Shown: in pieces, positions 2,746 through 18,129 of the stretch
Layout: every line of letters begins with the position of its first letter
Numbering within the stretch: the stretch's first letter is position 1
Assembly (NCBI GenBank): GCA_003522145.1
Contig: DPGD01000024.1
Span: 14,646 to 78,645, forward strand
Source: Clostridiales bacterium
GTDB taxonomy: Bacteria; Bacillota; Clostridia; Oscillospirales; CAG-272
Length of the DNA: 64,000 bases
Direction: 5' to 3'
Notes under the pieces: model-generated
What the model saw: only the letters and a program-made list of their open reading frames with translations
The model's database searches: none
Told to the model about the DNA's origin: nothing
Program-made: the position numbers and the translations under genes

Positions 2746-2755
2746 GCGAGGAATT

Positions 2756-5191
2756 ATGAAAACTTTCTTTTTGCTCTCCGTCGTAGCGCTTTTGCCCGTG
2801 ATTTTGTCCGCGCTGATATACCTTGCGGAACGGACAAAAGCCATCCGCAAGCTTCCCTATGCCGTCAGGCAGCTCCTGATCGGAGTTCTGTTCGGCGGGC
2901 TTGCGATTCTCGGAACGGAATTTGGGATCAAAACCGACGGCGCCATCATCAACGCAAGAGACGCCTCGCCGATCTGCGCGGGACTTCTTTTCGGCGCGCC
3001 GGCAGGAATCATAGCGGGACTGATCGGCGGCGTGGAGCGGTGGTTCGCAGTTCTTTGGGGAGCCGGGCAATATACCCGTCTCGCCTGCAGCATTTCCACC
3101 GTGCTTGCGGGCGTTTTCGCGGCTGTCCTGCGGAAATTCATGTTTGATAACAAAAAGCCGAAATGGTATTACTGTCTTGCGACGGCAACCATTACGGAGG
3201 TCATCCATATGCTGATGATATTCCTTACGAACATGACCGACGCAAGAACCGCGTTTTCGTTTGTGCGAACCTGCTCGCTTCCCATGATTGCGGTCAACAG
3301 TCTTGCCGTGATGCTTGCGGGGCTTCTGCTTTCGATTCTTTCCGGAGCGGATCGTAAAAGCGAAAGGCGCGACCTGAAAAAAATTTCACAGTCGTTTCAG
3401 CGGTTTCTCCTGATCTGCGTTACGGCGGGCTTTCTCATGACAACGATTTTCACATGGGCGTTGCAGACGGAGCTTGCCAAAAACGAGGCAAACAACCTGG
3501 TAAAGCTGAACATCGAAGATGTAAAAGCGGATATTCTTGACGCTTCCAACCACAACCTCCTGTCCCTCACGGCCAAAATCGCCGAACGCATCCATACGGC
3601 GGACAAGGTGGATTACGCGCTGCTTTGCGCCCTCGGAAACGAATACGATGTAGCCGAAATCAACATCATCAATCCGCAAGGCATCATCGTGGAAACCACC
3701 TACGAAAAGTTTCGGAATTACGACATGCGCGGAGGCCATCAATCGGCGGAGTTTCTTGTCCTGCTTGACGGGGAAACCAAGGAATATGTTCAAAACTATC
3801 AGCCTACCTCGTCCAATCCGGCCATTTCCCGCAAATATGCGGGCATCGTGCTGGACGGCGGCGGCTTTGTGCAGGTGGCTTATGACGCGGAGCGCTTCCA
3901 AAAAGACATTGATGACATTGTCATCGGAGTCACGCGCAACCGCCACATCGGAGAAAACGGCAGTATAATCATCGCCGGCGAGGATTGGAACATCGTCAGC
4001 GACAGACACGGAAACGAAGGCAAAAACCTCGATGTTTCCGGCATTTACATAGACCGCCCTACCATGCCCGAGGACAAGTATTTTGACGCCGTTGTTTACG
4101 GCGAGAAATCGCTTTGCCGATATATCGTTTCCGAAGGCTACTACATCGTGGCCGCCATGCCTTACACGGAGGCGGTGTTCTCGCGCGACGTGTCGGTGTA
4201 TGTGACGGTGTTTATGGAATTTGTTGTTTTCGGAATGTTGTTCATCGTCGTTTATTTTCTCATCAAGAAGCTGGTCGTGGACAACATGGTGAAGATCAAC
4301 CAATCGCTGGCAAAGATCACCAGCGGCAACCTTGACACCGTCGTAAATGTAAGAACCAACGAAGAATTTGCTTCCCTTTCCGACGATATAAACTCAACCG
4401 TTCTGACGCTGAAGCGCTATATTGCGGAAGCGGCGGCGCGCATCGACAAAGAATTGGAATTTGCCAAGGCCATTCAACATTCCGCCATTCCGATGGTTTT
4501 CCCGCCGTATCCCGGCCACAGCGAATTTGACATATACGCAACCATGGACACCGCCAAAGAAGTGGGCGGCGACTTTTACGATTTCTATTTTGTCGGCGAA
4601 AACAAGCTCGGATTTCTTATCGCCGATGTTTCCGGCAAAGGGATTCCCGCCGCCATGTTTATGATGACGGCCAAAACCATCATAAAAGGCTATGCCGAGG
4701 CCGGCAGGGACGTAGACGAGGTCTTTACCGTCGCCAATGCCAAGCTGTGCGAATCCAACGAAGCCGGAATGTTTGTCACCGCATGGATGGGCATGCTGGA
4801 TATAACCACCGGAAGGGTTGAATTTGCCAACGCAGGCCACAACCCGCCGCTCGTAAGACATGCAGACGGAAGCTTTGAATTTCTGAAATCCAAGCCGGGC
4901 TTCATTCTTGCCGGAATGGAGGGGATGAAGTATCGCAAAAACGAGCTTGTCCTTTCGGCCGGCGACGAGATCTATCTCTATACCGACGGAGTTACGGAGG
5001 CGACAAACGCGAAAAACGAGCTTTACGGCGAAAAACGGCTGGTAAAGCTGCTGGATTCCCTGCACGGACTGACAAGCGAAGGAATTTGTCGTGCCGTCAA
5101 GGCAGACATAGACGCTTTTGTGGGAGACGCCCCGCAATTCGATGATATTACCATGCTGTATCTGAAATATAACGGAGGCTCTGAAAAATGA
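2756..5191 (+). CDS. Membrane sensor PP2C phosphatase (5TMR-LYT N-terminus, extracytoplasmic Cache-like domain, HAMP, SpoIIE/RsbU-type PP2C)
   Basis: 811 aa. The N-terminal multi-TM region contains the INARDASP/LytS-like motif, followed by a roughly 240-aa extracytoplasmic segment between TM helices. HAMP-like: INQSLAKITSGNLDTVVNVRTNEEFASLSDDIN. PP2C motifs: GGDFYDF, ADVSGKGIPAAMFM, YTDGVTEA, DDITMLY. Confidence 0.9.
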   Translation: MKTFFLLSVVALLPVILSALIYLAERTKAIRKLPYAVRQLLIGVLFGGLAILGTEFGIKTDGAIINARDASPICAGLLFGAPAGIIAGLIGGVERWFAVLWGAGQYTRLACSISTVLAGVFAAVLRKFMFDNKKPKWYYCLATATITEVIHMLMIFLTNMTDARTAFSFVRTCSLPMIAVNSLAVMLAGLLLSILSGADRKSERRDLKKISQSFQRFLLICVTAGFLMTTIFTWALQTELAKNEANNLVKLNIEDVKADILDASNHNLLSLTAKIAERIHTADKVDYALLCALGNEYDVAEINIINPQGIIVETTYEKFRNYDMRGGHQSAEFLVLLDGETKEYVQNYQPTSSNPAISRKYAGIVLDGGGFVQVAYDAERFQKDIDDIVIGVTRNRHIGENGSIIIAGEDWNIVSDRHGNEGKNLDVSGIYIDRPTMPEDKYFDAVVYGEKSLCRYIVSEGYYIVAAMPYTEAVFSRDVSVYVTVFMEFVVFGMLFIVVYFLIKKLVVDNMVKINQSLAKITSGNLDTVVNVRTNEEFASLSDDINSTVLTLKRYIAEAAARIDKELEFAKAIQHSAIPMVFPPYPGHSEFDIYATMDTAKEVGGDFYDFYFVGENKLGFLIADVSGKGIPAAMFMMTAKTIIKGYAEAGRDVDEVFTVANAKLCESNEAGMFVTAWMGMLDITTGRVEFANAGHNPPLVRHADGSFEFLKSKPGFILAGMEGMKYRKNELVLSAGDEIYLYTDGVTEATNAKNELYGEKRLVKLLDSLHGLTSEGICRAVKADIDAFVGDAPQFDDITMLYLKYNGGSEK

Positions 5192-5595
5192 AGGAATTGA
5201 CAATCCCCGCAACCGTTGAAAACATAGAAAAGGTAACCGAATTTGTAAACCGTCAGCTTCAGGAGATCCACTGCCCGAGCAAGGCGCAGATGCAGATTGA
5301 TATAGCGATTGACGAGCTTTTCGGCAACATCGCGCATTACGCATACAGGCCCGAAACAGGCCCCGCCACGGTGCGCGTGGAGGTAACGGAAGCGCCGATC
5401 TCCGTCATTGTCACCTTTATTGATCATGGGGTTCCCTACGATCCTCTGAAAAAGGACGATCCCGACATTACCCTGTCCGCAGACGAACGCGCCATTGGCG
5501 GGCTTGGCATTTTCATGGTCAAGAAAACCATGGACGAAATCACATACGAATATAAGGACGGTCAGAACATCCTTCGCATCCGAAAGGATCTTTGA
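5188..5595 (+). CDS. RsbW/SpoIIAB-like anti-sigma serine kinase (HATPase_c)
   Basis: 135 aa. The start overlaps the phosphatase stop (ATGA). N-box-like DELFGNIAHYAY, G-box-like GGLGIFMVKKTMDE. Confidence 0.85.
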   Translation: MKELTIPATVENIEKVTEFVNRQLQEIHCPSKAQMQIDIAIDELFGNIAHYAYRPETGPATVRVEVTEAPISVIVTFIDHGVPYDPLKKDDPDITLSADERAIGGLGIFMVKKTMDEITYEYKDGQNILRIRKDL

Positions 5596-5638: not shown

Positions 5639-6115
5639 ATGAGCCAACCGATATTCCGCCAAAAAAGTATGGAAAAAATCTCTTCCCCGGAGCAGATGAA
5701 CGATTACATCCGCGTGTCAAACCCAAGTGTATGGATGATCCTTGCCGCCGTTATCGTACTGCTGGCAGGCGTATGCGTGTGGGGAATGTTCGGATGTCTT
5801 GACACCTCCTTTCAAACGGGCGGCGTCTGCCGGGACGGCTGTCTGACCGTTTATGTCAAGGAAGCCGACTTTGCCAAAATCAAAGGAAAAGCCATTCTTT
5901 CGGTTGACGGCTCGGAGCTTTCGCTGTCCGATCTGCCAGGCTCTCCCGTTCGGCTCGATGACAGTGCCGATCCGTATCTTCTTCATCTCATAGGCGCTTC
6001 GGCGGGCGATTGGGTATATGTTCTGACAGTCGATGCCAAAGACATGAAAAGCGGCACGTTCTCCGTTTCGGTCATTACCGAGCGCGTCAAGCCGCTCGAC
6101 TTTGTGCTGAACTGA
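5639..6115 (+). CDS. Short HlyD-like NHLM/NHLP-type bacteriocin secretion protein (158 aa)
   Basis: ATG at 5639 follows GAGGTAAAGGT. The N-terminal FRQKSMEKISSPEQMNDYIRVSNPSVWMIL + TM helix is the signature opening of HlyD-type adaptors of NHLM bacteriocin exporters (TIGR03794-like, from memory). The protein is far shorter than canonical adaptors. Confidence 0.6.
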   Translation: MSQPIFRQKSMEKISSPEQMNDYIRVSNPSVWMILAAVIVLLAGVCVWGMFGCLDTSFQTGGVCRDGCLTVYVKEADFAKIKGKAILSVDGSELSLSDLPGSPVRLDDSADPYLLHLIGASAGDWVYVLTVDAKDMKSGTFSVSVITERVKPLDFVLN

Positions 6116-6124
6116 GGTGCGGAC

Positions 6125-8305
6125 ATGAAGGCAACCAAAAAAATCAAAGCGCCCCTGACAAAGGGCGTGGCCAAAGTGCCCGTGATCATGCAGATGGAAG
6201 CGCTGGAATGCGGCGCCGCAAGCCTTGCCATGATCCTTGCCTATTATGAAAAATGGATCCCGCTGGAGCAGGTGCGTCTTGACTGCGGCGTTTCGCGCGA
6301 CGGCTCCAACGCAAGAAATCTTCTCCGGGCCGCCCGAAGCTACGGCCTTGCGGCCAAGGGCTATCGCTATGAACCCGAAACCCTGAAAAAAGAGGGGAAA
6401 TTCCCCTGCATTATCCATTGGAATTTCAATCATTTTGTGGTTCTTGACGGCTTCAAGGGCAACAAAGCGGTGTTAAACGATCCCGCAAAGGGCACCTATA
6501 CTGTCCCTATGAGCGTTTTTGACGACTCGTTTACAGGGGTATGCCTGTTTTTTGAGCCGGACGAAGGCTTTGTGCCGGAGGGCAAGCCGCAGTCCATGCT
6601 GAAATATGCGCAAAAACGGCTTGTCGGCGCAAGCACCGCCATTGTATTCGTCGTTCTGACCTCTATGATCACATCCCTGCTCGGCATGATCACGCCGGCG
6701 TTTTCGCGCATCTTTCTTGACCGACTGCTGACAAAAGAAAACCCGGAATGGCTCACGCCGTTTACGATTGCACTTGTGGGAATAAGCGTCATTCAGCTTA
6801 TCGTTGCATGGATCCAGGCCATCTATTCTCTCCGCATCAACGGAAAGCTCGCCATGGTGGGAAACACAACCTTTATGTGGAAAATCCTGCGCATGCCCAT
6901 GGAATTTTTTTCTCAGCGCATGGCAGGCGATCTTCAGGGCAGACAAGCGTCGAACGCCATGATAGCGGAGCGGCTGGTCAACATGTTTGCGCCGCTCGCG
7001 CTCAACGCCGCTATGATGGTGTTTTATCTCGTGGTCATGCTCCGATACAGCGTCGTACTGACGATGATAGGGCTTTTTTCGGTGATTGCCAACCTGGCCC
7101 TTTCGGGAATTATTTCAAGAAAGCGCATCAATATCACCCGCGTGCAAATGCGCGACGCCGGCAAGCTGGCGGGAACCACGGTCGCCGGCATAGAAATGAT
7201 TGAAACCATCAAGGCCAGCGGCGCCGAAAACGGCTTTTTTGAAAAATGGGCCGGCTATCAGGCAAGCGTCAATACAAATCAGGTTCGGTATCAGCGCACC
7301 AATCTGCTTCTTGAGCTACTGCCGGCTCTGATAAGCGCCCTTTGCGGAACGGCCGTGCTGATGACAGGCGTTTTCCTGGCGATGGAAGGTCTGTTTACCG
7401 TCGGTATGATCATGGCGTTTCAGGGCTTTCTTTCGTCGTTCGTTTCCCCCGCAATGTCGCTGATTTCCGCGGGGCAATCGCTCCAGGAAATGCGCACCGA
7501 TATGGAACGGATTGAGGATGTTATGAAATATCCCGCCGACGTGACCTTTGCCGAGCACGAGGAGGAGGCTGTCGAATACGACAAGCTGGCCGGAAACATC
7601 GAAATCAAAAATATAACCTTCGGGTATTCCCGCCTGGCGGAGCCTTTGATTCAGGATTTCAGCATGACCTTGACGCCGGGAAGCCGCATTGCTTTTGTCG
7701 GGCCGTCCGGGTGCGGAAAGTCCACCCTCTCAAAGCTCATATCCGGACTTTACAAGCCTTGGAGCGGCGAAATCCTGTTTGACGGCAAGCCTTTGTCGGA
7801 AATTGATCGCAGCGTGTTTACAGGCTCCCTTGCCGTGGTGGATCAGGATATTATCCTGTTTGAAGATACGATTGCCAACAACATTAAAATGTGGGATAAC
7901 TCCATTGAAGACTTTGAAATGATCATGGCGGCGCGCGACGCGCAGCTTCACGAGGATATTATGCAGCGCGAAGGCGGCTATCAGTACCGGCTGACCGAGG
8001 GCGGAAAGGATTTTTCCGGCGGGCAGAGACAGCGCATGGAGATTGCGCGCGTGCTCGCGCAGGATCCCACGATCATCCTTCTTGACGAGGCGACAAGTGC
8101 GCTGGACGCCAAAACCGAATACGACGTGGTGAAATCCATCAAAGACAGGGGCATCACCTGTATTGTGGTGGCGCACAGACTTTCCACCATACGCGATTGT
8201 GACGAGATTATTGTAATGGATCAGGGAAAAGTCATTGAGCGCGGAACACACGAGGAGCTGATGAAACAAGGCGGAGCTTATACTCAGCTCGTATCAAACG
8301 AGTAA
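6125..8305 (+). CDS. Bacteriocin ABC exporter with N-terminal C39 peptidase domain (NHLM ABC1-type)
   Basis: 726 aa. C39 motif QMEALECGAASLAMILAYY (catalytic Cys about aa 29) and HWNFNHFVVL; six-TM permease region; Walker A GPSGCGKST, signature FSGGQRQR, Walker B ILLDEATSALD. Confidence 0.92.
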   Translation: MKATKKIKAPLTKGVAKVPVIMQMEALECGAASLAMILAYYEKWIPLEQVRLDCGVSRDGSNARNLLRAARSYGLAAKGYRYEPETLKKEGKFPCIIHWNFNHFVVLDGFKGNKAVLNDPAKGTYTVPMSVFDDSFTGVCLFFEPDEGFVPEGKPQSMLKYAQKRLVGASTAIVFVVLTSMITSLLGMITPAFSRIFLDRLLTKENPEWLTPFTIALVGISVIQLIVAWIQAIYSLRINGKLAMVGNTTFMWKILRMPMEFFSQRMAGDLQGRQASNAMIAERLVNMFAPLALNAAMMVFYLVVMLRYSVVLTMIGLFSVIANLALSGIISRKRINITRVQMRDAGKLAGTTVAGIEMIETIKASGAENGFFEKWAGYQASVNTNQVRYQRTNLLLELLPALISALCGTAVLMTGVFLAMEGLFTVGMIMAFQGFLSSFVSPAMSLISAGQSLQEMRTDMERIEDVMKYPADVTFAEHEEEAVEYDKLAGNIEIKNITFGYSRLAEPLIQDFSMTLTPGSRIAFVGPSGCGKSTLSKLISGLYKPWSGEILFDGKPLSEIDRSVFTGSLAVVDQDIILFEDTIANNIKMWDNSIEDFEMIMAARDAQLHEDIMQREGGYQYRLTEGGKDFSGGQRQRMEIARVLAQDPTIILLDEATSALDAKTEYDVVKSIKDRGITCIVVAHRLSTIRDCDEIIVMDQGKVIERGTHEELMKQGGAYTQLVSNE

Positions 8306-8319
8306 GGGGGCGGATCGAT

Positions 8320-10521
8320 ATGGGTTGGTTTGACGAACAAATCAGAGATCGCAAGCATAACGACGACGAGGCTTTTGCCGAAGCCTTTGCCAATATGGCC
8401 TCTGCCATCACCGGCAAAAAAATCGAAGCCTCCTTAAACAACGACCGCGCTGTTACCAAAGACGCCATCGACGAAATTCTGAAATATTATCATGTAAAGA
8501 GCCGCGAGGTGCCGGACGAAATCGGCGACATAAACGAACAGCTTGAATATCTCATGCGCCCTTTCGGCATTATGCGACGCCCGATCCGGCTGGAGGACGG
8601 CTGGTATCGTGACGCAATCGGCGCCATGCTCGGCGTGCTGCGCGAAAGCGGAAGGGTGGTGGCGCTGATTCCCACAGGGCTTTCCGGGTACAGCTATTTT
8701 GATTACGAAGTCGGCAAACGAAGAAAAATCAATCGCAAAAATCAGCACCTGTTTGAAATGGAAGCCATTGCGTTTTACAAGCCCTTTCCGCTGAAAAAAA
8801 TCAGCCTGCCGTCGCTGGCCGCATATATCATGCGGACGCTTTCGGCCTCCGATTTTGTGATGATCGCCCTGGCCACGCTTGCTCTATCGCTGATCGGCAT
8901 GATTTCCCCGATGATCAGCAAGCTCCTGTTTGCTCGTGTGCTTCCGTCGGGAAGCATGCGCCTGCTTATCGCCATTACGGTCTTCTCCGTGTCCGTTTCG
9001 ATCAGCACGCTTCTCTTTTCCGCCGTGAAAAAGCTGATCATGGCCCGGATCGAAACCAAGCTGAACATATCGGTTGACGCAGCCGCCATGATGCGCGTCC
9101 TGTCGCTCCCGGCCGATTTCTTCAAGTCGTACAGCGCAGGCGAGCTTTCAAACCGTGTGTCTCAGGTCGGTGTGCTTTGCAAAATGCTGGCGTCCACCGT
9201 CCTGTCTACGGGACTGACTTCCCTTTTCTCGCTCCTATACCTATCGCAGATATTTGTCTACGCGCCGGCTCTTGTCGCTCCCGCGCTGATAATTATTCTT
9301 GTAACCGTTGTATTTTCCATCCTGTCGTCGCTCATTCAGATGAAAATAAGCATACGTCAGATGGAGCTTTCCGGCAAAGAAGACGGTATGACCTATGCTC
9401 TCATTTCGGGCATACAAAAGATTAAGCTGGCCGGCGCCGAAAAACGCGCCTTTGCAAGATGGGGCAATCTTTATGCCGAAAGCGCAAGGCTTACCTACAA
9501 TCCGCCGATGTTTATCAAGCTCAACACCGTCATCAGCCTTGCCATAAGCCTTGCGGGAACGATCATCATGTACGTCATGGCGGTAAAATCGGGCATTTCC
9601 GTGGCCGATTATTACGCCTTCGGCACGGCATACGGCATGGTGTCCGGCGCATTTACGGCGCTGGCCGGAATCGCGCTCACCGTGGCGCAGATAAAGCCCA
9701 TCCTCCATATGGTAAAACCGTTTTTTGATACCGCACCTGAAGTTTCAGACGGAAAACAGGTGATCACAAGGCTGTCCGGCGGAATTGAACTGAGCAATGT
9801 TTCGTTCCGATACAGCGAAAACATGCCCCTGGTGGTAGACGATATGTCGCTTAAAATACGTCCCGGACAATATGTTGCCATCGTCGGGAAAACGGGCTGC
9901 GGAAAGTCAACGCTTATGCGTCTGCTGCTCGGCTTTGAGCATCCGCAAAAAGGCGCCATCTATTATGACGGGAGAGATCTGGAACGAATTGACCTCCGCT
10001 CTCTGCGGCGTCGGATCGGTTCCGTTATGCAAAACGGGAAGCTGTTCCAGGGCGATATTTATTCCAATATCGTCATTTCCGCACCGTGGCTGTCCCCAAA
10101 CGAAGCATGGGAAGCGGCGGAGCTTGCGGGAATTGCCGAGGATATAAGAAAAATGCCCATGGGGATGAGCACGATCATCTCCGAAGGCTCGGGCGGCATC
10201 TCCGGCGGACAGCGCCAGCGGCTGATGATTGCTCGCGCCATCGCGCCAAAGCCCAGAATCCTTATGTTTGACGAGGCGACAAGCGCGCTGGACAATCTCA
10301 CGCAGAAAAAGATCTCCGAAGCGCTCGACTCATTGAAATGCACCAGAATCGTAATTGCGCACCGGCTTTCGACCATCAAGCAGTGCGACAGGATCCTCGT
10401 GCTGGATCACGGAAAGATCATCGAAGACGGCAAATATGACGAGCTGATTGCAAAGAACGGCTTCTTTGCGGAGCTTGTCGCTCGGCAGAGGCTTGACGGC
10501 GCTCCCAAAGCCGATTTCTAA
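8320..10521 (+). CDS. Second bacteriocin ABC exporter permease/ATPase without peptidase domain (NHLM ABC2-type)
   Basis: 733 aa. It has a non-peptidase N-terminal domain of about 150 aa, a TM region, Walker A GKTGCGKST, signature ISGGQRQR, and Walker B LMFDEATSALD. Confidence 0.9.
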   Translation: MGWFDEQIRDRKHNDDEAFAEAFANMASAITGKKIEASLNNDRAVTKDAIDEILKYYHVKSREVPDEIGDINEQLEYLMRPFGIMRRPIRLEDGWYRDAIGAMLGVLRESGRVVALIPTGLSGYSYFDYEVGKRRKINRKNQHLFEMEAIAFYKPFPLKKISLPSLAAYIMRTLSASDFVMIALATLALSLIGMISPMISKLLFARVLPSGSMRLLIAITVFSVSVSISTLLFSAVKKLIMARIETKLNISVDAAAMMRVLSLPADFFKSYSAGELSNRVSQVGVLCKMLASTVLSTGLTSLFSLLYLSQIFVYAPALVAPALIIILVTVVFSILSSLIQMKISIRQMELSGKEDGMTYALISGIQKIKLAGAEKRAFARWGNLYAESARLTYNPPMFIKLNTVISLAISLAGTIIMYVMAVKSGISVADYYAFGTAYGMVSGAFTALAGIALTVAQIKPILHMVKPFFDTAPEVSDGKQVITRLSGGIELSNVSFRYSENMPLVVDDMSLKIRPGQYVAIVGKTGCGKSTLMRLLLGFEHPQKGAIYYDGRDLERIDLRSLRRRIGSVMQNGKLFQGDIYSNIVISAPWLSPNEAWEAAELAGIAEDIRKMPMGMSTIISEGSGGISGGQRQRLMIARAIAPKPRILMFDEATSALDNLTQKKISEALDSLKCTRIVIAHRLSTIKQCDRILVLDHGKIIEDGKYDELIAKNGFFAELVARQRLDGAPKADF

Positions 10522-10606
10522 CGCAAAAAACTTCAAAAATTTTTTCAGATTTTTATTAGCCTTTTTTTCTTTTGGATCGTATAAATCAACAGAAGGAGGA
10601 AGTAAA

Positions 10607-10843
10607 GTGATAGGCATAAGAGCAGGGCAACAAGACAGATTGCCCGAAATCAGCGAAAAAACGCTTTCGGCGCTGTTTGATTATCAATTGTTTGAAAACG
10701 AGCCTTCGCTCCGAAAACTCATAGATGAAGTGGAAAACGAATACGGTGCCGAAATTTCAGAGGATGACCTCTCGCTTGTCAGTGCGGCGGGCGAAACGGA
10801 ATCTTCCGAAAAGCGCAAAGGCAAAATGGACGGTACTCTATGA
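10607..10843 (+). CDS. Small acidic protein of unknown function, translationally coupled to the sigma factor
   Basis: GTG at 10607 lies 7 nt after AGGAGGA (10594-10600). The 78-aa ORF's stop overlaps the sigma gene ATG (ATGA at 10840-10843). The segment YGAEISEDDLSLVSAAG resembles the Nif11/double-glycine leader end of the downstream precursors. Confidence 0.45.
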   Translation: MIGIRAGQQDRLPEISEKTLSALFDYQLFENEPSLRKLIDEVENEYGAEISEDDLSLVSAAGETESSEKRKGKMDGTL

Positions 10844-11325
10844 GCCTTGCAACGGAAAAGGAAGCGCTGTATACGGAATACCACGACAAGGTAAGCCATT
10901 ATGTTTTCTGCAGACTGCAAAACAAAAGCGACGCAGAAGACATTGTCAGCGAAATCTTCCTGAAAGTTTACGAACATTTCGATACATTTGACGCAAGTCT
11001 TGCTTCCGTTTCCACATGGATTTATACGATCACACGGAACACCGTAACGGATTATTTCAGGTCAAACCGCATCTATGCGGAATTGCCGGAGGAGTTATCG
11101 GACGGAGACGACATCGATTGCGTTGTTTTACAAAAAGAATCTCTTGCGGCGCTCGGAAAAGCGCTCGGCAAGCTTGACGAGCGCCGCTGCGCCCTTGTGA
11201 TTTTAAAGTATTACAAGAAAATGTCTCTGAAAGATATAGCGGCAAGAATGGGCATATCGTATGCCTATGTAAAAATTCTGCACAAAAGTGCGCTGAACAA
11301 ACTTAAAAATGATCTGAGCGGTTGA
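10840..11325 (+). CDS. Sigma-70 family (ECF-like, two-domain) RNA polymerase sigma factor
   Basis: 161 aa. Region 2: DAEDIVSEIFLKVYEHFDTFD...STWIYTITRNTVTDYFR. Region 4 HTH: MSLKDIAARMGISYAYVKILHKSALNKLK. Confidence 0.9.
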   Translation: MSLATEKEALYTEYHDKVSHYVFCRLQNKSDAEDIVSEIFLKVYEHFDTFDASLASVSTWIYTITRNTVTDYFRSNRIYAELPEELSDGDDIDCVVLQKESLAALGKALGKLDERRCALVILKYYKKMSLKDIAARMGISYAYVKILHKSALNKLKNDLSG

Positions 11326-11358: not shown

Positions 11359-11544
11359 ATGAAAGAACAGAAGGAAAAAATCAAAACCGACAAAGCGGAG
11401 CTGAATGAAAACGAGCTTGAAAAAGTAGACGGCGGCATGAAAGTAATAATCATCGGCGACGGAAAGATGGGGATGTGCGAAAGATGCGGCATATATGCCT
11501 ATATCGTTGACGGGCTTTGCGAAAAATGCAGAAAAAATAAGTGA
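11359..11544 (+). CDS. Precursor peptide P1: short double-glycine leader + 35-aa core with CxxCG-x9-CxxC
   Basis: AGGAGG RBS. Leader MKEQKEKIKTDKAELNENELEKVDGG, core MKVIIIGDGKMGMCERCGIYAYIVDGLCEKCRKNK (4 Cys). Confidence 0.75.
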   Translation: MKEQKEKIKTDKAELNENELEKVDGGMKVIIIGDGKMGMCERCGIYAYIVDGLCEKCRKNK

Positions 11545-11568
11545 CCGAGAAGAATAAAATACACGGCT

Positions 11569-11841
11569 ATGGAAAAAAACAAAAAGCTTACAAAAGCAAA
11601 TGCGGACGAATTATCCGATAAAAAACTTGAAAATGTTTCGGGCGGCACCGAAATCACGGACAATGAGAGCATTAAGATAAACAACAATAATTTTGACACA
11701 AGTATAAATTTCAATAATTTTGACACGAGCATCAAAATAAACAACAATAATGTTGATATGAGCATAAAGCATAGCAACGATATGAATAAAAACATTCTGC
11801 TAAACAACGATTCAGATATGAAAATACTGAAAAACAACTGA
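11569..11841 (+). CDS. Precursor peptide P2: short double-glycine leader + 64-aa Asn-rich, Cys-free repeat core
   Basis: Leader MEKNKKLTKANADELSDKKLENVSGG. The core contains IKINNNNFDTSINFNNFDTSIKINNNNVDMSIKH and has AT-rich coding DNA. Confidence 0.6.
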   Translation: MEKNKKLTKANADELSDKKLENVSGGTEITDNESIKINNNNFDTSINFNNFDTSIKINNNNVDMSIKHSNDMNKNILLNNDSDMKILKNN

Positions 11842-11894
11842 AAAGCGCTGTTATCCCGCCCAAAAACTTTTATGAATAAGGAGACGACAAGAAA

Positions 11895-12311
11895 ATGAAC
11901 ACCGAACTTATCGCCAAGGCAAAGGAAGCGAAATCCCCCGAAGAACTGATGGCTCTTGCAAAAGAAAACGGCATGGAACTGACCGAAGAAGCAGCAAGTA
12001 CATATTTTAATCAGCTCAACCCAAAAATGGGCGAGCTTGCAGATGACGAGCTTGACAATGTTGCCGGCGGCGGCTGCTACTCAAGCGGCGGACGTCTAAA
12101 AACTACCTGCGGATATAAATGCAAGCATTATCAAGACGGGCCTTCAACTTATGGTGTAAAAGGCACCTGCTGCAGATGCAGATACTGGGGCGTCGATCCT
12201 AACGCTATAAGCGCTTCTCTTTGGACAACGGTTTTAGAGTTGATCGTAAAAGCGGCTGAGGCGGCTGAACCTCGTGAGTGCTACCATCCCGCCAACAGTA
12301 AAAAGGGCTGA
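11895..12311 (+). CDS. Precursor peptide P3: Nif11-type leader + ~78-aa core (7 Cys)
   Basis: Leader MNTELIAKAKEAKSPEELMALAKENGMELTEEAASTYFNQLNPKMGELADDELDNVAGGG, followed by CYSSGGRLKTTCGYKCKHYQDGPSTYGVKGTCCRCRYWG... Confidence 0.85.
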   Translation: MNTELIAKAKEAKSPEELMALAKENGMELTEEAASTYFNQLNPKMGELADDELDNVAGGGCYSSGGRLKTTCGYKCKHYQDGPSTYGVKGTCCRCRYWGVDPNAISASLWTTVLELIVKAAEAAEPRECYHPANSKKG

Positions 12312-12370
12312 TTGGTACAAAAATTTGCACATTTAATTAAACAAATAAAAAACATCAAAGGAGCATCGCA

Positions 12371-12610
12371 ATGAAAATGAACAATGAACTTATCGCAAAA
12401 GCAAAACAGGCAAAAAACCCCGAAGAGCTTCTGGCTCTTGCAAAAGAAAACGGCGTTGAACTGACGGAAGAAAGCGCAAAGGCGTATTTCAATCAGCTCA
12501 ATCCCAAAACAGGCGAGCTTGCCGACGACGAGCTTGACAATGTCGCCGGCGGCGGCTGCCAGCAGAACAACGGTCATCTTGATAAATACAAGGATTTCAA
12601 CAACATTTGA
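12371..12610 (+). CDS. Precursor peptide P4: Nif11-type leader + very short core (1 Cys)
   Basis: The leader is near-identical to P3/P5. The core after GG(G) is only CQQNNGHLDKYKDFNNI. Confidence 0.7.
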   Translation: MKMNNELIAKAKQAKNPEELLALAKENGVELTEESAKAYFNQLNPKTGELADDELDNVAGGGCQQNNGHLDKYKDFNNI

Positions 12611-12661
12611 TTTTTTCCCGCACAACAAACATCTGAAAAATTTATTATGATAGGAGTTTTT

Positions 12662-13045
12662 ATGAAAAAGGATCTTTTAGTGAAAGCAAAACAAGCAAAA
12701 ACCCCTGAAGAATTGATGTCCTTCGCAAAGGAAAACAACATTGAACTGACCGAAGAGAGCGCAAAGGCGTACTTTGAACAGCTCAACCCCAAAACGGGCG
12801 AGCTTGCAGATGACGAGCTTGACAATGTTGCCGGCGGCGGATGCCATAACGGCGGCAGGCTTGTCGTTTCCGTAATGCATTACTGCGATGAATGGCGTTG
12901 CAAGGATGACGGCTCCCAATGCGATATAGACGGCGTACTGGTAAACTGCAACACCTGCAAGGTCGCCGCATACTGCTTTTCGTGCAAGTACTGTACCTAC
13001 GAAAAAGGGCTCTGGCTCTGCAATAACCCCGTTAACATGAAATAA
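12662..13045 (+). CDS. Precursor peptide P5: Nif11-type leader + ~68-aa core (10 Cys), paralogue of P8
   Basis: ATG 12662 after TAGGAG. Core GCHNGGRLVVSVMHYCDEWRCKDDGSQCDIDGVLVNCNTCKVAAYCFSCKYCTYEKGLWLCNNPVNMK. Confidence 0.85.
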   Translation: MKKDLLVKAKQAKTPEELMSFAKENNIELTEESAKAYFEQLNPKTGELADDELDNVAGGGCHNGGRLVVSVMHYCDEWRCKDDGSQCDIDGVLVNCNTCKVAAYCFSCKYCTYEKGLWLCNNPVNMK

Positions 13046-13071
13046 ACCTACTCAAACAAGGAGATTTTACC

Positions 13072-13485
13072 ATGGACAATAAATTTACACCCGAACTTAT
13101 TGAAAAAGCCAAAGAAGCGAAAACCCCCGAAGAATTGTTCGCTCTTGCAAAAGAAAACGGCGTTGAACTGACCGAAGAGAGCGCAGCGTCGTATTTTGAC
13201 CGGCTGAACCCCAAAACAGGTGAGCTTTCCGACAGTGAGCTTGATAATGTATCCGGCGGCGGTTGCCTCAGTGATGACCCCTACGATACTTGTATGGCGG
13301 ACGGCTACTGTTTGTCCGACTATGTATGCAGCCGTTGCGGCACAAGGGGTATTGACCATAGCACCGGCGTGTTGCGTTGTTCCGGATGTTTTGCAAGCGA
13401 CCCCCGCTGTCGGAACTGTAGGAACAGTATTGGGGATAAGAGCGATTCGGTATTAAAATGCAAGGTTCATCCGAGACCCTGCTAA
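13072..13485 (+). CDS. Precursor peptide P6: Nif11-type leader + ~75-aa core (11 Cys)
   Basis: The core GCLSDDPYDTCMADGYCLSDYVCSRCGTRGIDHSTGVLRCSGCFASDPRCRNCRNSIGDKSDSVLKCKVHPRPC contains CxxCG-x12-CxxC. Confidence 0.85.
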   Translation: MDNKFTPELIEKAKEAKTPEELFALAKENGVELTEESAASYFDRLNPKTGELSDSELDNVSGGGCLSDDPYDTCMADGYCLSDYVCSRCGTRGIDHSTGVLRCSGCFASDPRCRNCRNSIGDKSDSVLKCKVHPRPC

Positions 13486-13519
13486 AGAATATTTTAAATT
13501 GTACAGAGAGGATTCAAAG

Positions 13520-13915
13520 ATGGAAATGAACAAAGAATTGCTTGCAAAAGCAAAAGAAATGAAAACTCCCGAAGAACTCATGGCTCTCGCAAAAGAAAGC
13601 GGCATTGAAATGACAAAAGAAAAAGCGGATGAGTATTTTAAGCAGCTTAGCACAAGCTCCGGCGAGATATCCGATGAGGAACTCGATAATGTTTCCGGCG
13701 GCTGTGGCGGCGGATATGTTGCCGGCAGACCCCATCCTCAATTCGGCGTTGGTGAATCCGTTCTTTATATTTGCGGCTGGTTGGGAGGAGACAGGATAAC
13801 CGCGTCCGCCAAGGTCGTGAAGAGAAGCTATGAAAACGACGCATGGTATTATACCCTGAAAATACATGACGGAAGTGAAATAACGCTAAGCGAGTCGTAT
13901 GTAATAAAGAGCTGA
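13520..13915 (+). CDS. Precursor peptide P7: Nif11-type leader + ~70-aa Cys-poor, beta-rich core (2 Cys)
   Basis: ATG 13520 was chosen by alignment with P4 (MEMNKELLAKAK vs MKMNNELIAKAK). Core CGGGYVAGRPHPQFGVGESVLYICGWLGGDRITASAKVVKRSYENDAWYYTLKIHDGSEITLSESYVIKS. Confidence 0.75.
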   Translation: MEMNKELLAKAKEMKTPEELMALAKESGIEMTKEKADEYFKQLSTSSGEISDEELDNVSGGCGGGYVAGRPHPQFGVGESVLYICGWLGGDRITASAKVVKRSYENDAWYYTLKIHDGSEITLSESYVIKS

Positions 13916-13961
13916 GAACAAGACAGCTTTTACAAAATAAATTTGAGGCAAGGAGATTTTT

Positions 13962-14351
13962 ATGCAAAACAATCAAGAGCTTTTCGCAAAAGCAAAGGAA
14001 GCAAAAACCCCCGAGGAGCTGTTGTCTCTCGCGAAAGAAAACGGCATTGAAATGACCGATGAGAGCGCAAACGCATATTTTGAAATCATACATCCGAAAG
14101 CCGGCGAGCTTGCAGACGACGAGCTTGACAATGTATCCGGCGGCGGATGTCGCAAGAGTGACGGAAGACTTGTAGTTTCCGCCGGCTATTCATGCGGATA
14201 TTGGGAATGCAACAAATGCGGAGTGAAATGGAAAAATGCCGGTTACGGTACTTTTAAGTGCAGTAGGTGCGGAAAATCATCACATTGCAATAACTGCTAC
14301 TGGTGCTCATATGAAAAAGGGCTTTGGCTTTGCAATAACAAGGACAAATGA
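13962..14351 (+). CDS. Precursor peptide P8: Nif11-type leader + ~67-aa core (10 Cys), paralogue of P5
   Basis: Core GCRKSDGRLVVSAGYSCGYWECNKCGVKWKNAGYGTFKCSRCGKSSHCNNCYWCSYEKGLWLCNNKDK. It shares GRLVVS and C-x2-C-x5-C-x2-C-x2-C-x9-C / YEKGLWLCNN with P5. Confidence 0.85.
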   Translation: MQNNQELFAKAKEAKTPEELLSLAKENGIEMTDESANAYFEIIHPKAGELADDELDNVSGGGCRKSDGRLVVSAGYSCGYWECNKCGVKWKNAGYGTFKCSRCGKSSHCNNCYWCSYEKGLWLCNNKDK

Positions 14352-14365
14352 ACTGATTCGGGTAT

Positions 14366-15751
14366 ATGCGTTATATTTTGAACCCCAATGTCGCCCTGCG
14401 TTCATGGCAGCTCGTCCCCTACGCCTATTACATAAAGGGTGAACGCAATGCGGCAGGACTGAAAAAAGAAGAATTTGAATTTCTGTCGGCGTGTGACGGA
14501 AAAACCGACCTGCCGACAGAAAACGAAAGCACTCTCGCACACGAACTCATTGAAAAAGGCTTTATCCATAAAGCGGCGAGCGGAGAAAACCTCTCCGATT
14601 GGAGCAAACCCCGCATTTTTGAAAACCGTTATTTTCCCGCCATGAATCTGATGATAACGGGCAAATGCAATTATAATTGTATTCATTGCTTCAATGCCGC
14701 GGACAATGCCCCGCTGATGAGCGAATGGACTATGGATGAAATGAATACGCTTCTCGATCAGGCGCGCGATTGCGGAATCAATGCGTTCACAATCACCGGC
14801 GGCGAGCCTATGCTGCACAAAAATTTCTTTGAAATTATTGAAGGCATCTATTCGCGCGGAATGTTCGTCGAAGAACTGAACACCAACGGCCATTTCATAA
14901 ACAAGCAAGCGCTTGCGTGCCTGAAAAGCATCGGCTGCGTCCCGCTCGTGAAAATATCCTTTGACGGCATCGGTTATCACGATTGGATGCGGAATCATAA
15001 GGGTGCCGAGCAAATTGCGCTGGATGCGATTTCTCACTGTATTGAAAACGGGTTTCCCGTCAAAGTGCAGACCAACATGAACCGCCAAAACTGCGACATA
15101 ATGCTGGAAACGGCCAAAAAGCTGGACGCGATGGGCGTAAGCGAAACGCGGATGATCCGCACGACCGAAGCTCCGCGTTGGGTACAGAATGCCGGCGACG
15201 CCTGCCTTACGTTTGAAGAATATTTTGATAAAGCGATCTGCCTCTGGCAGAAATACGCGGCGGAAGCTCATGATATGAATCTGACCGTATGGCAAGTGGG
15301 AACGCTTTATCCAAAATCAAAATTTTATACCCTTGCCGCCGTCAATTCCTGCACAGGCCAATATCGCCCAAGCGCCCCCGTGTGCAAAGGCAACCGCGGC
15401 ATGGTTGCGGTGGCGGCCAACGGAAATCTTTACCCCTGCCATCAAATGTCCGGCTATTACGAGCAGCACGGATATTTTCTCGGCAACATCAAACAAACTC
15501 CGCTGAAAGAGTTACTTTCGGGCGGAAAATACCTTGACGAAGTCTGCACCACGCTCGGAACACTGAAAGAAAGCAACCGCAAGTGCGGCAATTGTTCCTA
15601 TTTTGAACGCTGTAACGGCGGTTGTCGCGCTATAGCGTTGGCACTTACAGGCGACAGGCTCGGAATCGATCCCTCCAAGTGCCTTTTCTGGGAAAACGGC
15701 TACGCCGAAAAAATTGCGGCGGCTCTGCCGGATTACGAAACAAATATTTAA
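14366..15751 (+). CDS. Radical SAM/SPASM-domain peptide maturase
   Basis: 461 aa. CX3CX2C = CNYNCIHC (aa 101-108). SPASM-type auxiliary cluster motifs: CKGNRGMVAVAANGNLYPC (C-x12-G-x4-C) and CGNCSYFERCNGGC (CX2CX5CX3C). The ~95-aa N-terminal extension before the SAM cluster could be a leader-recognition (RRE/PqqD-like) domain. Confidence 0.92.
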   Translation: MRYILNPNVALRSWQLVPYAYYIKGERNAAGLKKEEFEFLSACDGKTDLPTENESTLAHELIEKGFIHKAASGENLSDWSKPRIFENRYFPAMNLMITGKCNYNCIHCFNAADNAPLMSEWTMDEMNTLLDQARDCGINAFTITGGEPMLHKNFFEIIEGIYSRGMFVEELNTNGHFINKQALACLKSIGCVPLVKISFDGIGYHDWMRNHKGAEQIALDAISHCIENGFPVKVQTNMNRQNCDIMLETAKKLDAMGVSETRMIRTTEAPRWVQNAGDACLTFEEYFDKAICLWQKYAAEAHDMNLTVWQVGTLYPKSKFYTLAAVNSCTGQYRPSAPVCKGNRGMVAVAANGNLYPCHQMSGYYEQHGYFLGNIKQTPLKELLSGGKYLDEVCTTLGTLKESNRKCGNCSYFERCNGGCRAIALALTGDRLGIDPSKCLFWENGYAEKIAAALPDYETNI

Positions 15752-15773
15752 TATAAAGAAAGGACTCACGAAC

Positions 15774-15980
15774 ATGGATAACAAAAACAACGAAACAAAG
15801 GAATACATCCTCACGGAAGAAGAACTGAAAGCCGTTTCCGGCGGCAAATCGTCACAAGTCCCCGGTATTAACTGTCCGCGTTGCGGCAAATTTATTCCGA
15901 CAACCATTACGGATTTACTGGTCCAACCTCGTATCAGATGCCCGTACTGTTTGTTGATACTGAATATCAATCAGAAATAA
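15774..15980 (+). CDS. Precursor peptide P9: short double-glycine leader + 44-aa core with CxxCG-x17-CxxC
   Basis: ATG 15774 (the track ORF opens earlier, at 15714, overlapping the rSAM gene). Leader MDNKNNETKEYILTEEELKAVSGG, core KSSQVPGINCPRCGKFIPTTITDLLVQPRIRCPYCLLILNINQK. Confidence 0.7.
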   Translation: MDNKNNETKEYILTEEELKAVSGGKSSQVPGINCPRCGKFIPTTITDLLVQPRIRCPYCLLILNINQK

Positions 15981-16654: not shown

Positions 16655-17050
16655 TTAGATGCAGTGCGAAGAAACACTTCTCTCTTGGTGAAACAAGGGC
16701 TTGCAAGTGACCGCTATCTTCCGGGCTTGCAGAGCCATGCTTGTAAACGAGCTTATGTATGCCGTTTCGGTTTCAAAACCGATGTATTGTCTGCCGGTGA
16801 TGGTGAAATCCGCACCGAGCAGACTGCGGATGATTCTGTTCTTGTCACGCAGATAGTTACCTTTGCTGTAAAGAGACACACGTGCCTCCTGCACATCATA
16901 GGAAAGAGCATCGTCTGCATTGAGGGCAAAGCGGTCGGACATAGGCACCGCCACGATATAGGTATCCGGGGCGGTGTCGGTAAACACACCCGTTTCAAGC
17001 GGAATGCCGAGGGGTGTGAGAGTTTGTTTGATGTCTGCAAGGATATTCAT
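16655..17050 (-). CDS. Phage head-tail joining/tail-completion-like protein (family uncertain)
   Basis: 131 aa, 4-nt overlap with the upstream phage gene. Its position after the gp10-like gene is typical of HK97/SPP1-like head-tail modules. The C-terminal ~30 aa look atypical, so it may be junction-derived. Confidence 0.45.
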   Translation of the reverse strand: MNILADIKQTLTPLGIPLETGVFTDTAPDTYIVAVPMSDRFALNADDALSYDVQEARVSLYSKGNYLRDKNRIIRSLLGADFTITGRQYIGFETETAYISSFTSMALQARKIAVTCKPLFHQERSVSSHCI

Positions 17051-18120: not shown

Positions 18121-18129
18121 CTCCCGTCA

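Follow-up and report, generated by a model that had tools for sequence, protein, structure and literature searches.

Organization of the locus

We analyzed a 64,000-nucleotide stretch of DNA (the window; positions 14,646 to 78,645 of contig DPGD01000024.1, assembly GCA_003522145.1) from a Clostridiales bacterium (Oscillospirales; CAG-272). A small ORF overlaps the start of an alternative sigma factor gene, downstream of the genes for a peptide exporter and upstream of a series of precursor peptide genes. The features of interest, all on the + strand, are the following.

2449-5595 (+), partner-switching module: STAS antagonist (2449-2745), 5TMR-LYT/SpoIIE-type PP2C phosphatase (2756-5191) and RsbW-like kinase/anti-sigma (5188-5595)
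5642-6115 (+), short single-pass accessory protein (p158), of which only the N-terminus resembles the NHLP-system HlyD protein
6125-8305 (+), C39 peptidase-ABC exporter (PCAT), NHLM_micro_ABC1
8320-10521 (+), second ABC subunit without a peptidase domain, NHLM_micro_ABC2
10557-10584 (+), ECF-type promoter-like element, TAGCC-N16-CGTATAA, 23 nt upstream of the GTG
10594-10600 (+), Shine-Dalgarno sequence AGGAGGA
10607-10843 (+), small ORF starting with GTG and encoding 78 aa
10655-10744 (+), residues 17-46 of the small protein, conserved N-terminal module (EKxLxxLFDYQxFExNxxLxxLI...), proposed sigma-binding part
10751-10795 (+), residues 49-63, double-glycine-leader-like segment E-I-S-E-D-D-L-S-L-V-S-A-A-G-E
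10784-10792 (+), codons for A60-A61-G62
10796-10840 (+), residues 64-78, variable charged tail (TESSEKRKGKMDGTL), of which the last codons carry the translation start context of the sigma gene
10840-11325 (+), ECF-type (group 4) sigma factor, 161 aa, translationally coupled to the small ORF
11359-15980 (+), cargo and maturase genes downstream in the same apparent operon: GG-leader peptides (11359-11544, 11569-11841, 15774-15980), six Nif11-leader Cys-rich precursors (11895-14351) and an rSAM/SPASM maturase (14366-15751)

The sigma factor contains Sigma70_r2 and r4 and matches TIGR02937 at 95.9 bits (cutoff 42.9). The two ABC subunits form the pair of the NHLM (NHLP/Nif11) bacteriocin export system, as they match TIGR03796 (939.7 bits, cutoff 853.3) and TIGR03797 (736.7 bits, cutoff 709.4), respectively, and the catalytic Q23, C29, H103 and D119 of the PCAT are invariant in 29 orthologues. 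The HlyD-like partner, p158, is truncated to 157 aa and matches only positions 1-51 of TIGR03794 (E 5.4e-9), but co-occurs with the PCAT pair in at least 35 loci. We considered the possibility that the 175-aa N-terminus of ABC2 is a degenerate C39-like domain that would specifically hold an uncleavable leader, but a profile-profile comparison (hhalign) of 47 ABC2 N-termini with 44 C39 domains gave a probability of 0.4% and an E-value of 0.16, so that this idea is not supported at the sequence level. In this apparent operon, the intergenic gaps of the downstream genes are 24-53 nt, and no terminator-like site lies on the + strand between the genes.

The small ORF is a gene of an undescribed family

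The initial annotation had described the ORF as a real gene, co-translated with the sigma gene and carrying a leader-like segment, and this observation was confirmed. The Shine-Dalgarno sequence lies 6 nt before the GTG, rather than 7 nt as had been indicated, and the stop codon TGA (10841-10843) overlaps the sigma ATG (10840-10842) as ATGA. The ribosome-binding site and the GTG align across 21 related loci, and the ATGA coupling is conserved in close relatives. We found 32 close homologues sharing 50-99% identity, nearly all 77-79 aa long, and a profile search returned 841 representative clusters at E<=1e-3. Among 14 orthologues, dN/dS was 0.25 overall, 0.15 for residues 14-63, 0.55 for the tail and 0.89 for residues 2-13, indicating that the core is under purifying selection.

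The family consensus is M-E-K-K-L-x-x-LFDYQRFE-x-N-x-x-L-x-x-LI…RY…LSDDDL-x-x-V-x-AAG-E, followed by a variable tail. No Pfam or NCBIfam match was found for the ORF at E<=1, and scanning 137 members individually against both libraries gave no recurrent family, but only scattered weak hits and one GLUG-motif hit in a tail. A profile search of solved structures gave nothing meaningful (best E-values 0.31 and 0.87), and there was no Rfam hit in the window, which argues against a known RNA element in place of an ORF. No TM helix is evident, as the initial annotation had stated. AF2 predicted two short helices (residues 17-23 and 33-46) with the rest extended and no globular fold (pLDDT 72, pTM 0.33), so that the protein looks disordered, as is the case for FlgM- or NepR-type anti-sigmas. 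In the N-terminal module, L20, L23, F24, D25, Q27, F29, L35 and I39 are each conserved in >=90% of the 137 members.

The tail ranges from about 8 to about 90 aa across the family. Most tails, including that of the present protein, are short, K/D/E-rich and low in complexity, with relaxed rather than diversifying selection. Tail subfamilies nevertheless have their own motifs (GGTISGN; GLUG-like GG[IL][TA]GDF; W[YH]G..N...PGSRFW.KW), and some members (L and P numbers designate loci and proteins of our collection) have long or cargo-like tails, as in L093 (82 aa of Gly-rich GGLTGDF repeats), L094 (70 aa), and L046 and P0120 (zinc ribbons).

The C-terminal segment resembles double-glycine leaders

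A profile-profile comparison of the family with the Nif11-type precursors of the same loci gave a single local match of 18 columns (E 8.5e-5, probability 60%), which aligns eLSDDdLxxVsAAGe with GELSDeELDNVaGGGc. The resemblance proposed by the initial annotation is thus statistically detectable, and it concerns the most conserved part of the family, but the register differs from the one that had been drawn: A60-A61 fall on the Gly-Gly positions and G62 on +1. Nothing resembles the N-terminal Nif11 domain (PF07862/TIGR03798), the idea of a divergent Nif11 domain was rejected, and the resemblance is to the generic double-glycine recognition helix rather than to Nif11 leaders as such.

Counting A61 as -1, the family has L/I at -12 (residue 50) in 136/137 members, D/E at -8 (residue 54) in 113/137, L at -7 (L55) in 132/137 and V at -4 (V58) in 127/137, and these match the published C39 recognition positions (PMC6363468, PMC10885120). 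By contrast, the known C39 site is GG, GA or GS at -2/-1 (PMC6363468, PMC10885120), while AAG is present in 137/137 members, none of which has Gly at -2 or -1. In the 5 exceptions found among 180 sequences inspected, G62 is still kept. The only variant with GG in register is L046, which has AAGG. Every other cargo peptide in these loci ends in GG. A single A>G change would create GA or GG, so both Ala residues are under selection. A signal-peptidase AXA site (S-A-A|G) was also considered, but rejected because there is no hydrophobic signal sequence.

The gene is found next to one type of sigma factor

In 79 non-redundant loci, the order is small gene>sigma in 47 and sigma>small gene in 17, while a further 8 are adjacent after correction of ORF-start artefacts or lie within 1.5 kb. 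A homologue of this ECF-type sigma is thus adjacent in about 90% of the loci, in either order. The initial annotation had named, as a finding that would count against it, sigma homologues with their own start context and no such ORF. We found that, of 7 sigma homologues sharing 49-56% identity, 6 have a family member directly adjacent, so that the proposal was not refuted. One sigma-exporter locus (L085/L086) lacks the small gene. Stand-alone pairs of sigma and small gene, with the AAG segment intact, sit among housekeeping genes in L042, L051, L069, L064, L044 and L050, lacking both an exporter and a sensor in cis. Most loci carry a single copy of the small gene, whereas cargo genes come in 4-10 copies; a few loci (L054, L055, L058 and L094) have a second, sometimes partial, copy.

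Among the 34 loci with full flanks, an NHLM-type C39 exporter pair is present in 24, an rSAM gene in 15 and a SpoIIE-type gene in 15, while about 30% have no PCAT within 10 kb. NHLM exporters are rare genes, and in many loci they form one operon with the sigma; in L045 the ABC2 and sigma genes overlap by 4 nt. In minimal loci with the order p158-PCAT-ABC2-sigma-small gene (L040, L045, L052 and L070), no other GG peptide lies within the locus, which makes the small protein the only candidate exporter substrate there.

The promoter-like element is conserved across 21 loci in an otherwise diverged intergenic region, and occurs once in the window against 0.04 expected. Only the bipartite motif is specific, since CGTATAA alone gave 2 hits against 2.4 expected. 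A PWM scan of 2.56 Mb gave 56 hits, almost all just upstream of small-family genes and the rest upstream of GG-leader peptide genes. In the 44 of 79 loci in which the motif was found, it lies directly upstream of the small gene, which in most of them is the first gene downstream, including sigma>small gene loci where the motif lies between the two genes. That the cognate sigma recognizes this element is inferred.

Possible function of the small protein

The best explanation that we can offer, though only tentatively, is that the ORF encodes an intrinsically disordered regulatory protein with two interfaces. Its N-terminal module (residues about 17-46) would bind the neighboring sigma and, by analogy with almost all direct ECF partners, hold it inactive. 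Its C-terminal segment (residues 49-63) would be a double-glycine-type recognition helix that docks on the C39 peptidase domain of the exporter and, because the scissile Gly-Gly is replaced by Ala-Ala-Gly, the protein would be handled differently from normal cargo, being not cleaved, cleaved slowly or cleaved in another register. In this view, the exporter would remove or sequester the small protein and free the sigma, which would transcribe the operon of small gene, sigma, precursor peptides and rSAM maturase from TAGCC-N16-CGTATAA. Precursor synthesis would thereby be tied to the presence and free capacity of the exporter, with built-in feedback because the small gene is the first gene of the regulon. 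The logic would be that of FlgM/sigma-28 and BtrA/BtrS. The reality of the gene, the purifying selection acting on it, the family and its motifs, the adjacency to the sigma, the enrichment of the exporter and the promoter motif are documented by our data, whereas sigma binding, the sign of the regulation, docking on C39, cleavage, and export, removal or sequestration by the exporter are inferred.

This reading rests first on the sigma being the constant partner. The N-terminal module is retained in loci with no modifying enzyme and no exporter, and as C39 recognition needs only about the last 13 leader residues (PMC6363468), this module needs another partner; the sigma is the only gene that is nearly always present. 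It rests also on the match of the C-terminal segment to GG leaders of the same loci, on the replacement of GG by AA, on the enrichment of NHLM-type exporters beside the pair, on the usual single copy per sigma and on the promoter shared with cargo. There is, moreover, a precedent in Bordetella, where an ECF sigma, a secreted anti-sigma and a partner-switching module occur together in one secretion locus (BtrS/BtrA/BtrUVW; PMC10732220, PMC6483047). Several findings fit less well. The locus already encodes an RsbW-like anti-sigma with STAS and PP2C partners, which could be the real sigma antagonist, and some tails look like exported payloads rather than regulator appendages. The AAGG of L046, the loci without PCAT and the locus without the small gene also count against it. 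No class I or class II anti-sigma domain signature is present: the ORF has no Cys or His motif of the zinc-binding type (HxxxCxxC), only two short predicted helices instead of a four-helix domain, and no Pfam anti-sigma hit. Finally, the leader of a PCAT substrate stays in the cell, so export would not by itself remove the proposed sigma-binding part.

A bolder version of this reading, which we consider unlikely although our data do not exclude it, is that the protein is a pseudo-substrate adaptor through which a peptide exporter talks to RNA polymerase. The AAG segment would dock in the C39 groove without being processed normally, the N-terminal module would hold the sigma, and real GG cargo would compete for the same groove, so that the amount of free small protein, and hence sigma activity, would track how busy the exporter is. 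This would be a FlgM-like checkpoint for bacteriocin/RiPP production in gut Clostridia, built from a leader-peptide mimic, and the PP2C/STAS/RsbW module might act as a second input.

The main rival, which is somewhat less likely, is that the protein is an exported precursor with a new kind of long leader. The conserved 60 residues would be a leader for the NHLM exporter, a third type beside the NHLP and Nif11 leaders, AAG would be a genuine processing site and the variable tail the secreted product. In short-tail members such as the present one, the product would be a signaling peptide feeding back on the sigma, for example through the membrane 5TMR-LYT/PP2C phosphatase, STAS and the RsbW-like kinase, and the gene would sit beside the sigma for the same reason that comC, blpC and plnA sit beside their regulators. 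In favor of this are the conserved N-terminus followed by a hypervariable C-terminus, the tail motifs and the long or zinc-ribbon tails, which are like those of GG-leader cargo in the same clusters, the shared promoter motif, the minimal loci, the AAGG of L046 and the recurrence of the sensor phosphatase module in 15 of 34 loci. Placing the pheromone gene first in the regulator operon is, furthermore, the classical layout of GG-pheromone systems; these have been reviewed (PMC7595303). Against it are the absence of Gly at -2 and -1 in the 137 members, the short charged tails under relaxed selection, unlike those of known GG pheromones, the usual single copy, the stand-alone pairs, and the long N-terminal module, which has no function in this model when no modifying enzyme is present.

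It is also possible, but unlikely, that the protein is purely a cytoplasmic partner of the sigma, either a mini anti-sigma like NepR or CnrY or an activator/stabilizer like ComW, without any part played by the exporter. The LSDDDLxxVxAAG segment would then belong to the sigma-binding surface and its likeness to double-glycine leaders would be convergent or vestigial. Adjacency to the sigma is indeed more constant than adjacency to the exporter, stand-alone pairs keep the AAG segment, the predicted structure is two helices plus an extended segment, and the leader match is short. Translational coupling gives fixed stoichiometry, as in rsbW-sigB or spoIIAB-sigF. However, the four C39 recognition positions and the acidic pattern are all kept in the right register, the exporter is frequent beside the pair, often in one operon with the sigma, and the long, secretion-type tails of some members are hard to explain. 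A decayed Nif11-type or rSAM precursor, or a chance ORF kept only for the sigma start context, could be suspected from the precursor-rich cluster, the absence of Cys from the tail and the overlap of the last codons with the sigma start region, but is in practice refuted by the 841 clusters, the core dN/dS, the occurrence of the family in loci without rSAM or Nif11 genes and downstream of the sigma gene, and the lack of similarity to the Nif11 domain. The family is far wider than the rSAM/Nif11 clusters, and the protein does not fit the rSAM/SPASM-modified precursors of this cluster, as its tail lacks a Cys-rich core and rSAM is present in only 15 of the 34 full-flank loci.

The interpretation given in the initial annotation is therefore partly supported. 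Of the roles that it had proposed, a degenerate precursor does not hold, whereas a soluble anti-sigma or adaptor, a decoy and a signaling peptide processed by the C39 exporter all remain compatible with the data; the never-Gly AA at the scissile position favors an adaptor or decoy-type role over an ordinary processed pheromone, while the long cargo-like tails of some members keep the export reading alive.

Comparison with described systems

Full-text literature searches found no paper on this family or on a sigma/anti-sigma link to PCATs, and only analogies turned up. Like FlgM, the export-coupled anti-sigma of sigma-28, the present protein is small, soluble and, as predicted, largely disordered, is encoded with the sigma that it would control and that would transcribe it, and is linked to a dedicated export machine, so that gene expression could report the state of the exporter. 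There is no sequence similarity, however, the exporter is a C39-ABC transporter and not a type III system, and FlgM is exported whole, whereas a PCAT leader normally stays in the cell; binding and export are here only inferred. The BtrA (BspR)/BtrS system with BtrU-BtrV-BtrW (PMC10732220, PMC6483047) has the same component list in one locus, namely an ECF sigma, a secreted anti-sigma candidate, a PP2C/STAS/RsbW-type partner-switching module and a secretion system. The analogy is one of architecture only, without homology: BtrA is a much larger protein, it uses a T3SS chaperone, and the organisms are Gram-negative pathogens.

Double-glycine leader peptides (the ComC, BlpC and PlnA pheromones and class II bacteriocin or RiPP precursors processed by PCATs) share with the family an amphipathic acidic helix with the residues at -12, -8, -7 and -4 described above, followed by small residues, a C39 exporter in the locus, a position next to the regulator gene and a variable C-terminal part. 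The family differs from them by its Ala-Ala, by a further conserved module of about 35 residues upstream, by its mostly charged, low-complexity tails and by a regulator that is a sigma factor rather than a two-component system. The Nif11-type and NHLP-type leaders (TIGR03798, TIGR03793) are likewise conserved N-terminal regions of about 60 aa before a variable C-terminus and are associated with the same exporter pair, but there is no HMM match, profile similarity is confined to the last 18 residues, the site is AAG instead of GG, there is usually one copy instead of gene arrays, and the family also occurs without the exporter in cis. The mini anti-sigmas NepR and CnrY (class II anti-sigma domains) similarly have about 50-70 residues and two short helices, are disordered when free and partner an ECF sigma, and NepR also works within a partner-switching scheme; there is no sequence relation, CnrY is membrane-anchored and neither carries a secretion-leader-like motif. 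ComW of Streptococcus pneumoniae, a small activator/stabilizer of sigma-X, is also a protein of about 78 aa dedicated to one alternative sigma in a peptide-export and quorum circuit, but acts positively, is not homologous and has no leader-like motif.

Known circuits controlling RiPP and bacteriocin production use two-component systems, Rgg-type regulators or membrane anti-sigmas, and how producers in gut Clostridia match precursor synthesis to export capacity is largely unknown. The present system is a compact, testable candidate of about 60-80 residues, found in hundreds of species-level clusters of Oscillospiraceae, Lachnospiraceae, Christensenellales and Erysipelotrichaceae, which combines a sigma-factor partner, an exporter-recognition motif with a conserved non-canonical site and a defined promoter motif. 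If the adaptor or exported anti-sigma reading holds, it would be a new way of coupling a type of ABC exporter to transcription and would give a practical handle (deleting or titrating the small gene, supplying the sigma) for switching on silent RiPP clusters from uncultured gut bacteria; if the precursor reading holds, it would define a third long-leader family and a non-GG processing site for PCATs. Either way, the family deserves a name and a model in the protein-family databases. We also considered that LSDDDL could contain a phosphosite targeted by the RsbW-like kinase, but rejected this because the Ser is replaced by N, D, P or T in many members.

Results

The small ORF and its gene cluster

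The small ORF runs from a GTG at 10607 to a TGA at 10843 and encodes 78 aa. AGGAGGA lies at 10594-10600, six bases before the start codon, and the stop codon overlaps the ATG of the next gene as ATGA. This next gene encodes a 161-aa group-4 (ECF-type) sigma factor with regions 2 and 4. The genes surrounding the pair are listed below.

Genes of the cluster, in gene order
1769-2383, TetR-like gene
2449-2745, STAS antagonist
2756-5191, membrane 5TMR-LYT/SpoIIE-type PP2C phosphatase
5188-5595, RsbW-like kinase
5642-6115 (+), short HlyD-N-terminus-like protein (p158)
6125-8305, C39-ABC exporter (PCAT), above the TIGR03796 cutoff
8320-10521, peptidase-less partner (ABC2), above the TIGR03797 cutoff
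10607-10843, the small ORF
10840-11325, the sigma factor
11359-11841, two GG-leader peptides
11895-14351, six Nif11-leader Cys-rich precursors
14366-15751, rSAM/SPASM maturase
15774-15980, one more GG peptide

The HlyD-family partner of the NHLM exporter is reduced here to a single-pass protein of about 157 aa (p158), which matches only positions 1-51 of TIGR03794; this truncated form is conserved in at least 35 loci. The GG-leader peptide at 11569-11841 (+), whose leader ends in LENVSGG, has as its core an Asn-rich repeat (NNNNFDTSI-like, three copies), and in this differs from the Cys-rich Nif11 cargo of the same operon. The cores of the two other GG-leader peptides (11359-11544 and 15774-15980, both +) have CxxC...CxxC zinc-ribbon-like patterns. 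Directly downstream of the peptide cluster, at 16655-18720 on the - strand, lies a prophage remnant comprising a truncated major head protein (only the C-terminal part of phrog_10), head-tail adaptor Ad1, head closure Hc1, a Neck1 protein and a tail terminator.

The small ORF is a real gene and belongs to an undescribed family

A sequence search returned 32 homologues of 50-99% identity, nearly all of 77-79 aa, none of which has a name or a Pfam domain. A profile search of 1.84 billion representatives gave 841 clusters at E<=1e-3. Among 14 orthologues, dN/dS was 0.25 overall, 0.15 for residues 14-63, 0.55 for the tail and 0.89 for residues 2-13. The typical family member is 60-70 aa long and begins at the equivalent of residue 16-17, so that the N-terminal extension found here is a lineage-specific, nearly neutral addition. 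No Rfam family was found in the window. The observation made in the initial annotation, i.e. a genuine small gene coupled to the sigma gene and carrying a leader-like segment, was confirmed.

In an alignment of 137 members, the consensus is MExKLxxLFDYQRFExNxxLxxLIxETExRYxxELSDDDLxxVxAAGE, followed by a variable tail. A60, A61 and G62 are invariant, while L20, L23, F24, D25, Q27, F29, L35, I39, D52, L55 and V58 are conserved in >=90% of the members. AF2, run with this alignment, predicted helices at 17-23 and 33-46 only (pLDDT 72, pTM 0.33), indicating that this is not a globular domain. No solved structure and no Pfam or NCBIfam family matched, even when each of the 137 members was scanned on its own. 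One 126-aa protein of the representative library (P0078) joins the N-terminus of this sigma family to a small-family protein at KAS-LFDYQ, but it is probably an assembly or frameshift chimera rather than a natural fusion.

Some members carry long tails after AAG. These are Gly-rich GG[LI][TA]GDF (GLUG-like) repeats or a 70-aa domain-like sequence (loci L093, 4637-5029; L094, 4551-4907; L036, 5959-6300; L030/L031), and many have a GG a few residues after AAG, for example AAGEFTMPGG-TISGN. The tail of the L093 member consists of 82 aa of GGLTGDF repeats and that of the L094 member is 70 aa long, while two other members, L046 and P0120, have zinc-ribbon tails similar to the cores of the two zinc-ribbon-like GG peptides of the window.

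Resemblance to double-glycine leaders

Profile-profile comparison of the family with the Nif11-type precursors of the same loci gave one 18-column match (E 8.5e-5, probability 60%), which places A60-A61 on the Gly-Gly positions and G62 on +1. Nothing resembled the N-terminal Nif11 domain. In this register, the published C39 recognition determinants, namely hydrophobic residues at -4, -7 and -12 and an acidic residue at -8 (PMC6363468, PMC10885120), are all present and highly conserved. In contrast, the canonical GG/GA/GS site never occurs, although the member in L046 has AAGG in the canonical register, while every other cargo peptide in these loci ends in GG. Because one A-to-G change would make a canonical site, the invariance argues for selection on Ala-Ala-Gly itself.

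Genomic neighbourhood of the family

A scan of species-representative genomes gave 80 loci in Oscillospiraceae, Lachnospiraceae, Christensenellales, Erysipelotrichaceae and other Clostridia MAGs. In 79 non-redundant loci, a homologue of this sigma was directly downstream of the small gene in 47 and directly upstream in 17; it was adjacent or within 1.5 kb in 8 more once ORF-start artefacts were corrected, and six loci had none nearby. Starting from the sigma instead, we found that 6 of 7 homologues at 49-56% identity have a family member adjacent. In the seventh, a sigma-exporter locus (L085 and L086), the place of the small gene is taken by a 235-nt spacer (5767-6000) made of tandem repeats of about 45 nt (GGGGCTGAAAGGCAGGCAnATGCAGnAAGAACnTTGAGATAACC), and no small-family gene lies within 6 kb.

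Among the 34 loci with at least 8 kb on both sides, 24 contain the NHLM exporter pair, 15 a SpoIIE-type phosphatase and 15 the rSAM maturase. Two extreme arrangements are informative. Minimal loci (L040, L045, L052 and L070) have the order p158-PCAT-ABC2-sigma-small, with housekeeping genes around and no other GG peptide, while stand-alone sigma+small pairs sit among housekeeping genes in L042, L051, L069, L064, L044 and L050.

A conserved promoter-like element upstream of the small gene

The intergenic region upstream of the small gene carries TAGCC-N16-CGTATAA at 10557-10584, which is conserved where the surrounding sequence is not. This element occurs once in the window against 0.04 expected. 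A weight matrix built from 31 instances found 56 sites in 2.56 Mb of scanned sequence. Nearly all of these lie just upstream of a small-family gene, including in sigma>small loci, where the site lies between the two genes; the few others precede GG-leader peptide genes. The -10 part is of the ECF type (CGTATA, as for Bacillus sigma-W). In the window, the gaps from the small gene to the rSAM gene are 24-53 nt, with no terminator-like site on the + strand. Thus, this putative promoter probably drives the small gene, the sigma, the precursors and the maturase as one autoregulated operon, its recognition by the cognate sigma being inferred.

Discussion

Three facts need to be explained together: the presence in most loci of one copy per sigma, next to it in either order; a strongly conserved N-terminal module that persists where there is no modifying enzyme and no exporter in cis; and a C39-type recognition helix with an invariant non-canonical AAG, together with a strong enrichment of NHLM exporters. 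The reading that covers all three, which we put forward only tentatively, is a two-interface regulator. In this view, the N-terminal part would be for the sigma, most likely as an anti-sigma, since direct ECF partners usually are, and the C-terminal part would be for the peptidase domain of the exporter. This would tie sigma activity to the exporter, with the logic of FlgM/sigma-28 and of BtrA/BtrS; the Bordetella system also sits with a PP2C/STAS/RsbW-type module (PMC10732220, PMC6483047). While the gene, its conservation and its genomic company are established by the sequence data, binding to the sigma, inhibition of the sigma and interaction with the peptidase domain are inferred, without biochemical evidence. 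Furthermore, an RsbW-like anti-sigma is already present in the locus, a PCAT leader normally stays in the cell, and the long, cargo-like tails of L093 and L094, the zinc ribbons of L046 and P0120, and the AAGG of L046 do not sit easily with this reading.

Those tails, the shared promoter and the minimal loci support the main alternative, a new type of long-leader precursor whose tail would be exported, acting as a signal in short-tail members. We consider this possible, but somewhat less likely. A plain sigma partner unrelated to the exporter appears less likely still. A decayed precursor or a chance ORF is effectively excluded. Of the roles suggested in the initial annotation (a soluble anti-sigma or adaptor, a degenerate precursor, a decoy or signalling peptide), the degenerate precursor is thus ruled out in practice, and the interpretation is only partly supported.

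The protein differs from GG-leader substrates in lacking the defining GG/GA/GS site, from Nif11 leaders in that no model matches, and from class I anti-sigma domains in having neither the fold nor the motif. It behaves like an anti-sigma in gene-neighbourhood terms and like a leader in motif terms. Export-linked sigma regulators and leader peptides are both known, but no paper describing this family was found in the literature searched. The family is of clear interest because the competing mechanisms are directly testable. In one locus (L092, 1325-3698), the small-sigma pair is preceded by two STAS genes, a RelA_SpoT-domain gene and an HD_4-domain gene, which hints at a link between this sigma module and (p)ppGpp-type signalling.
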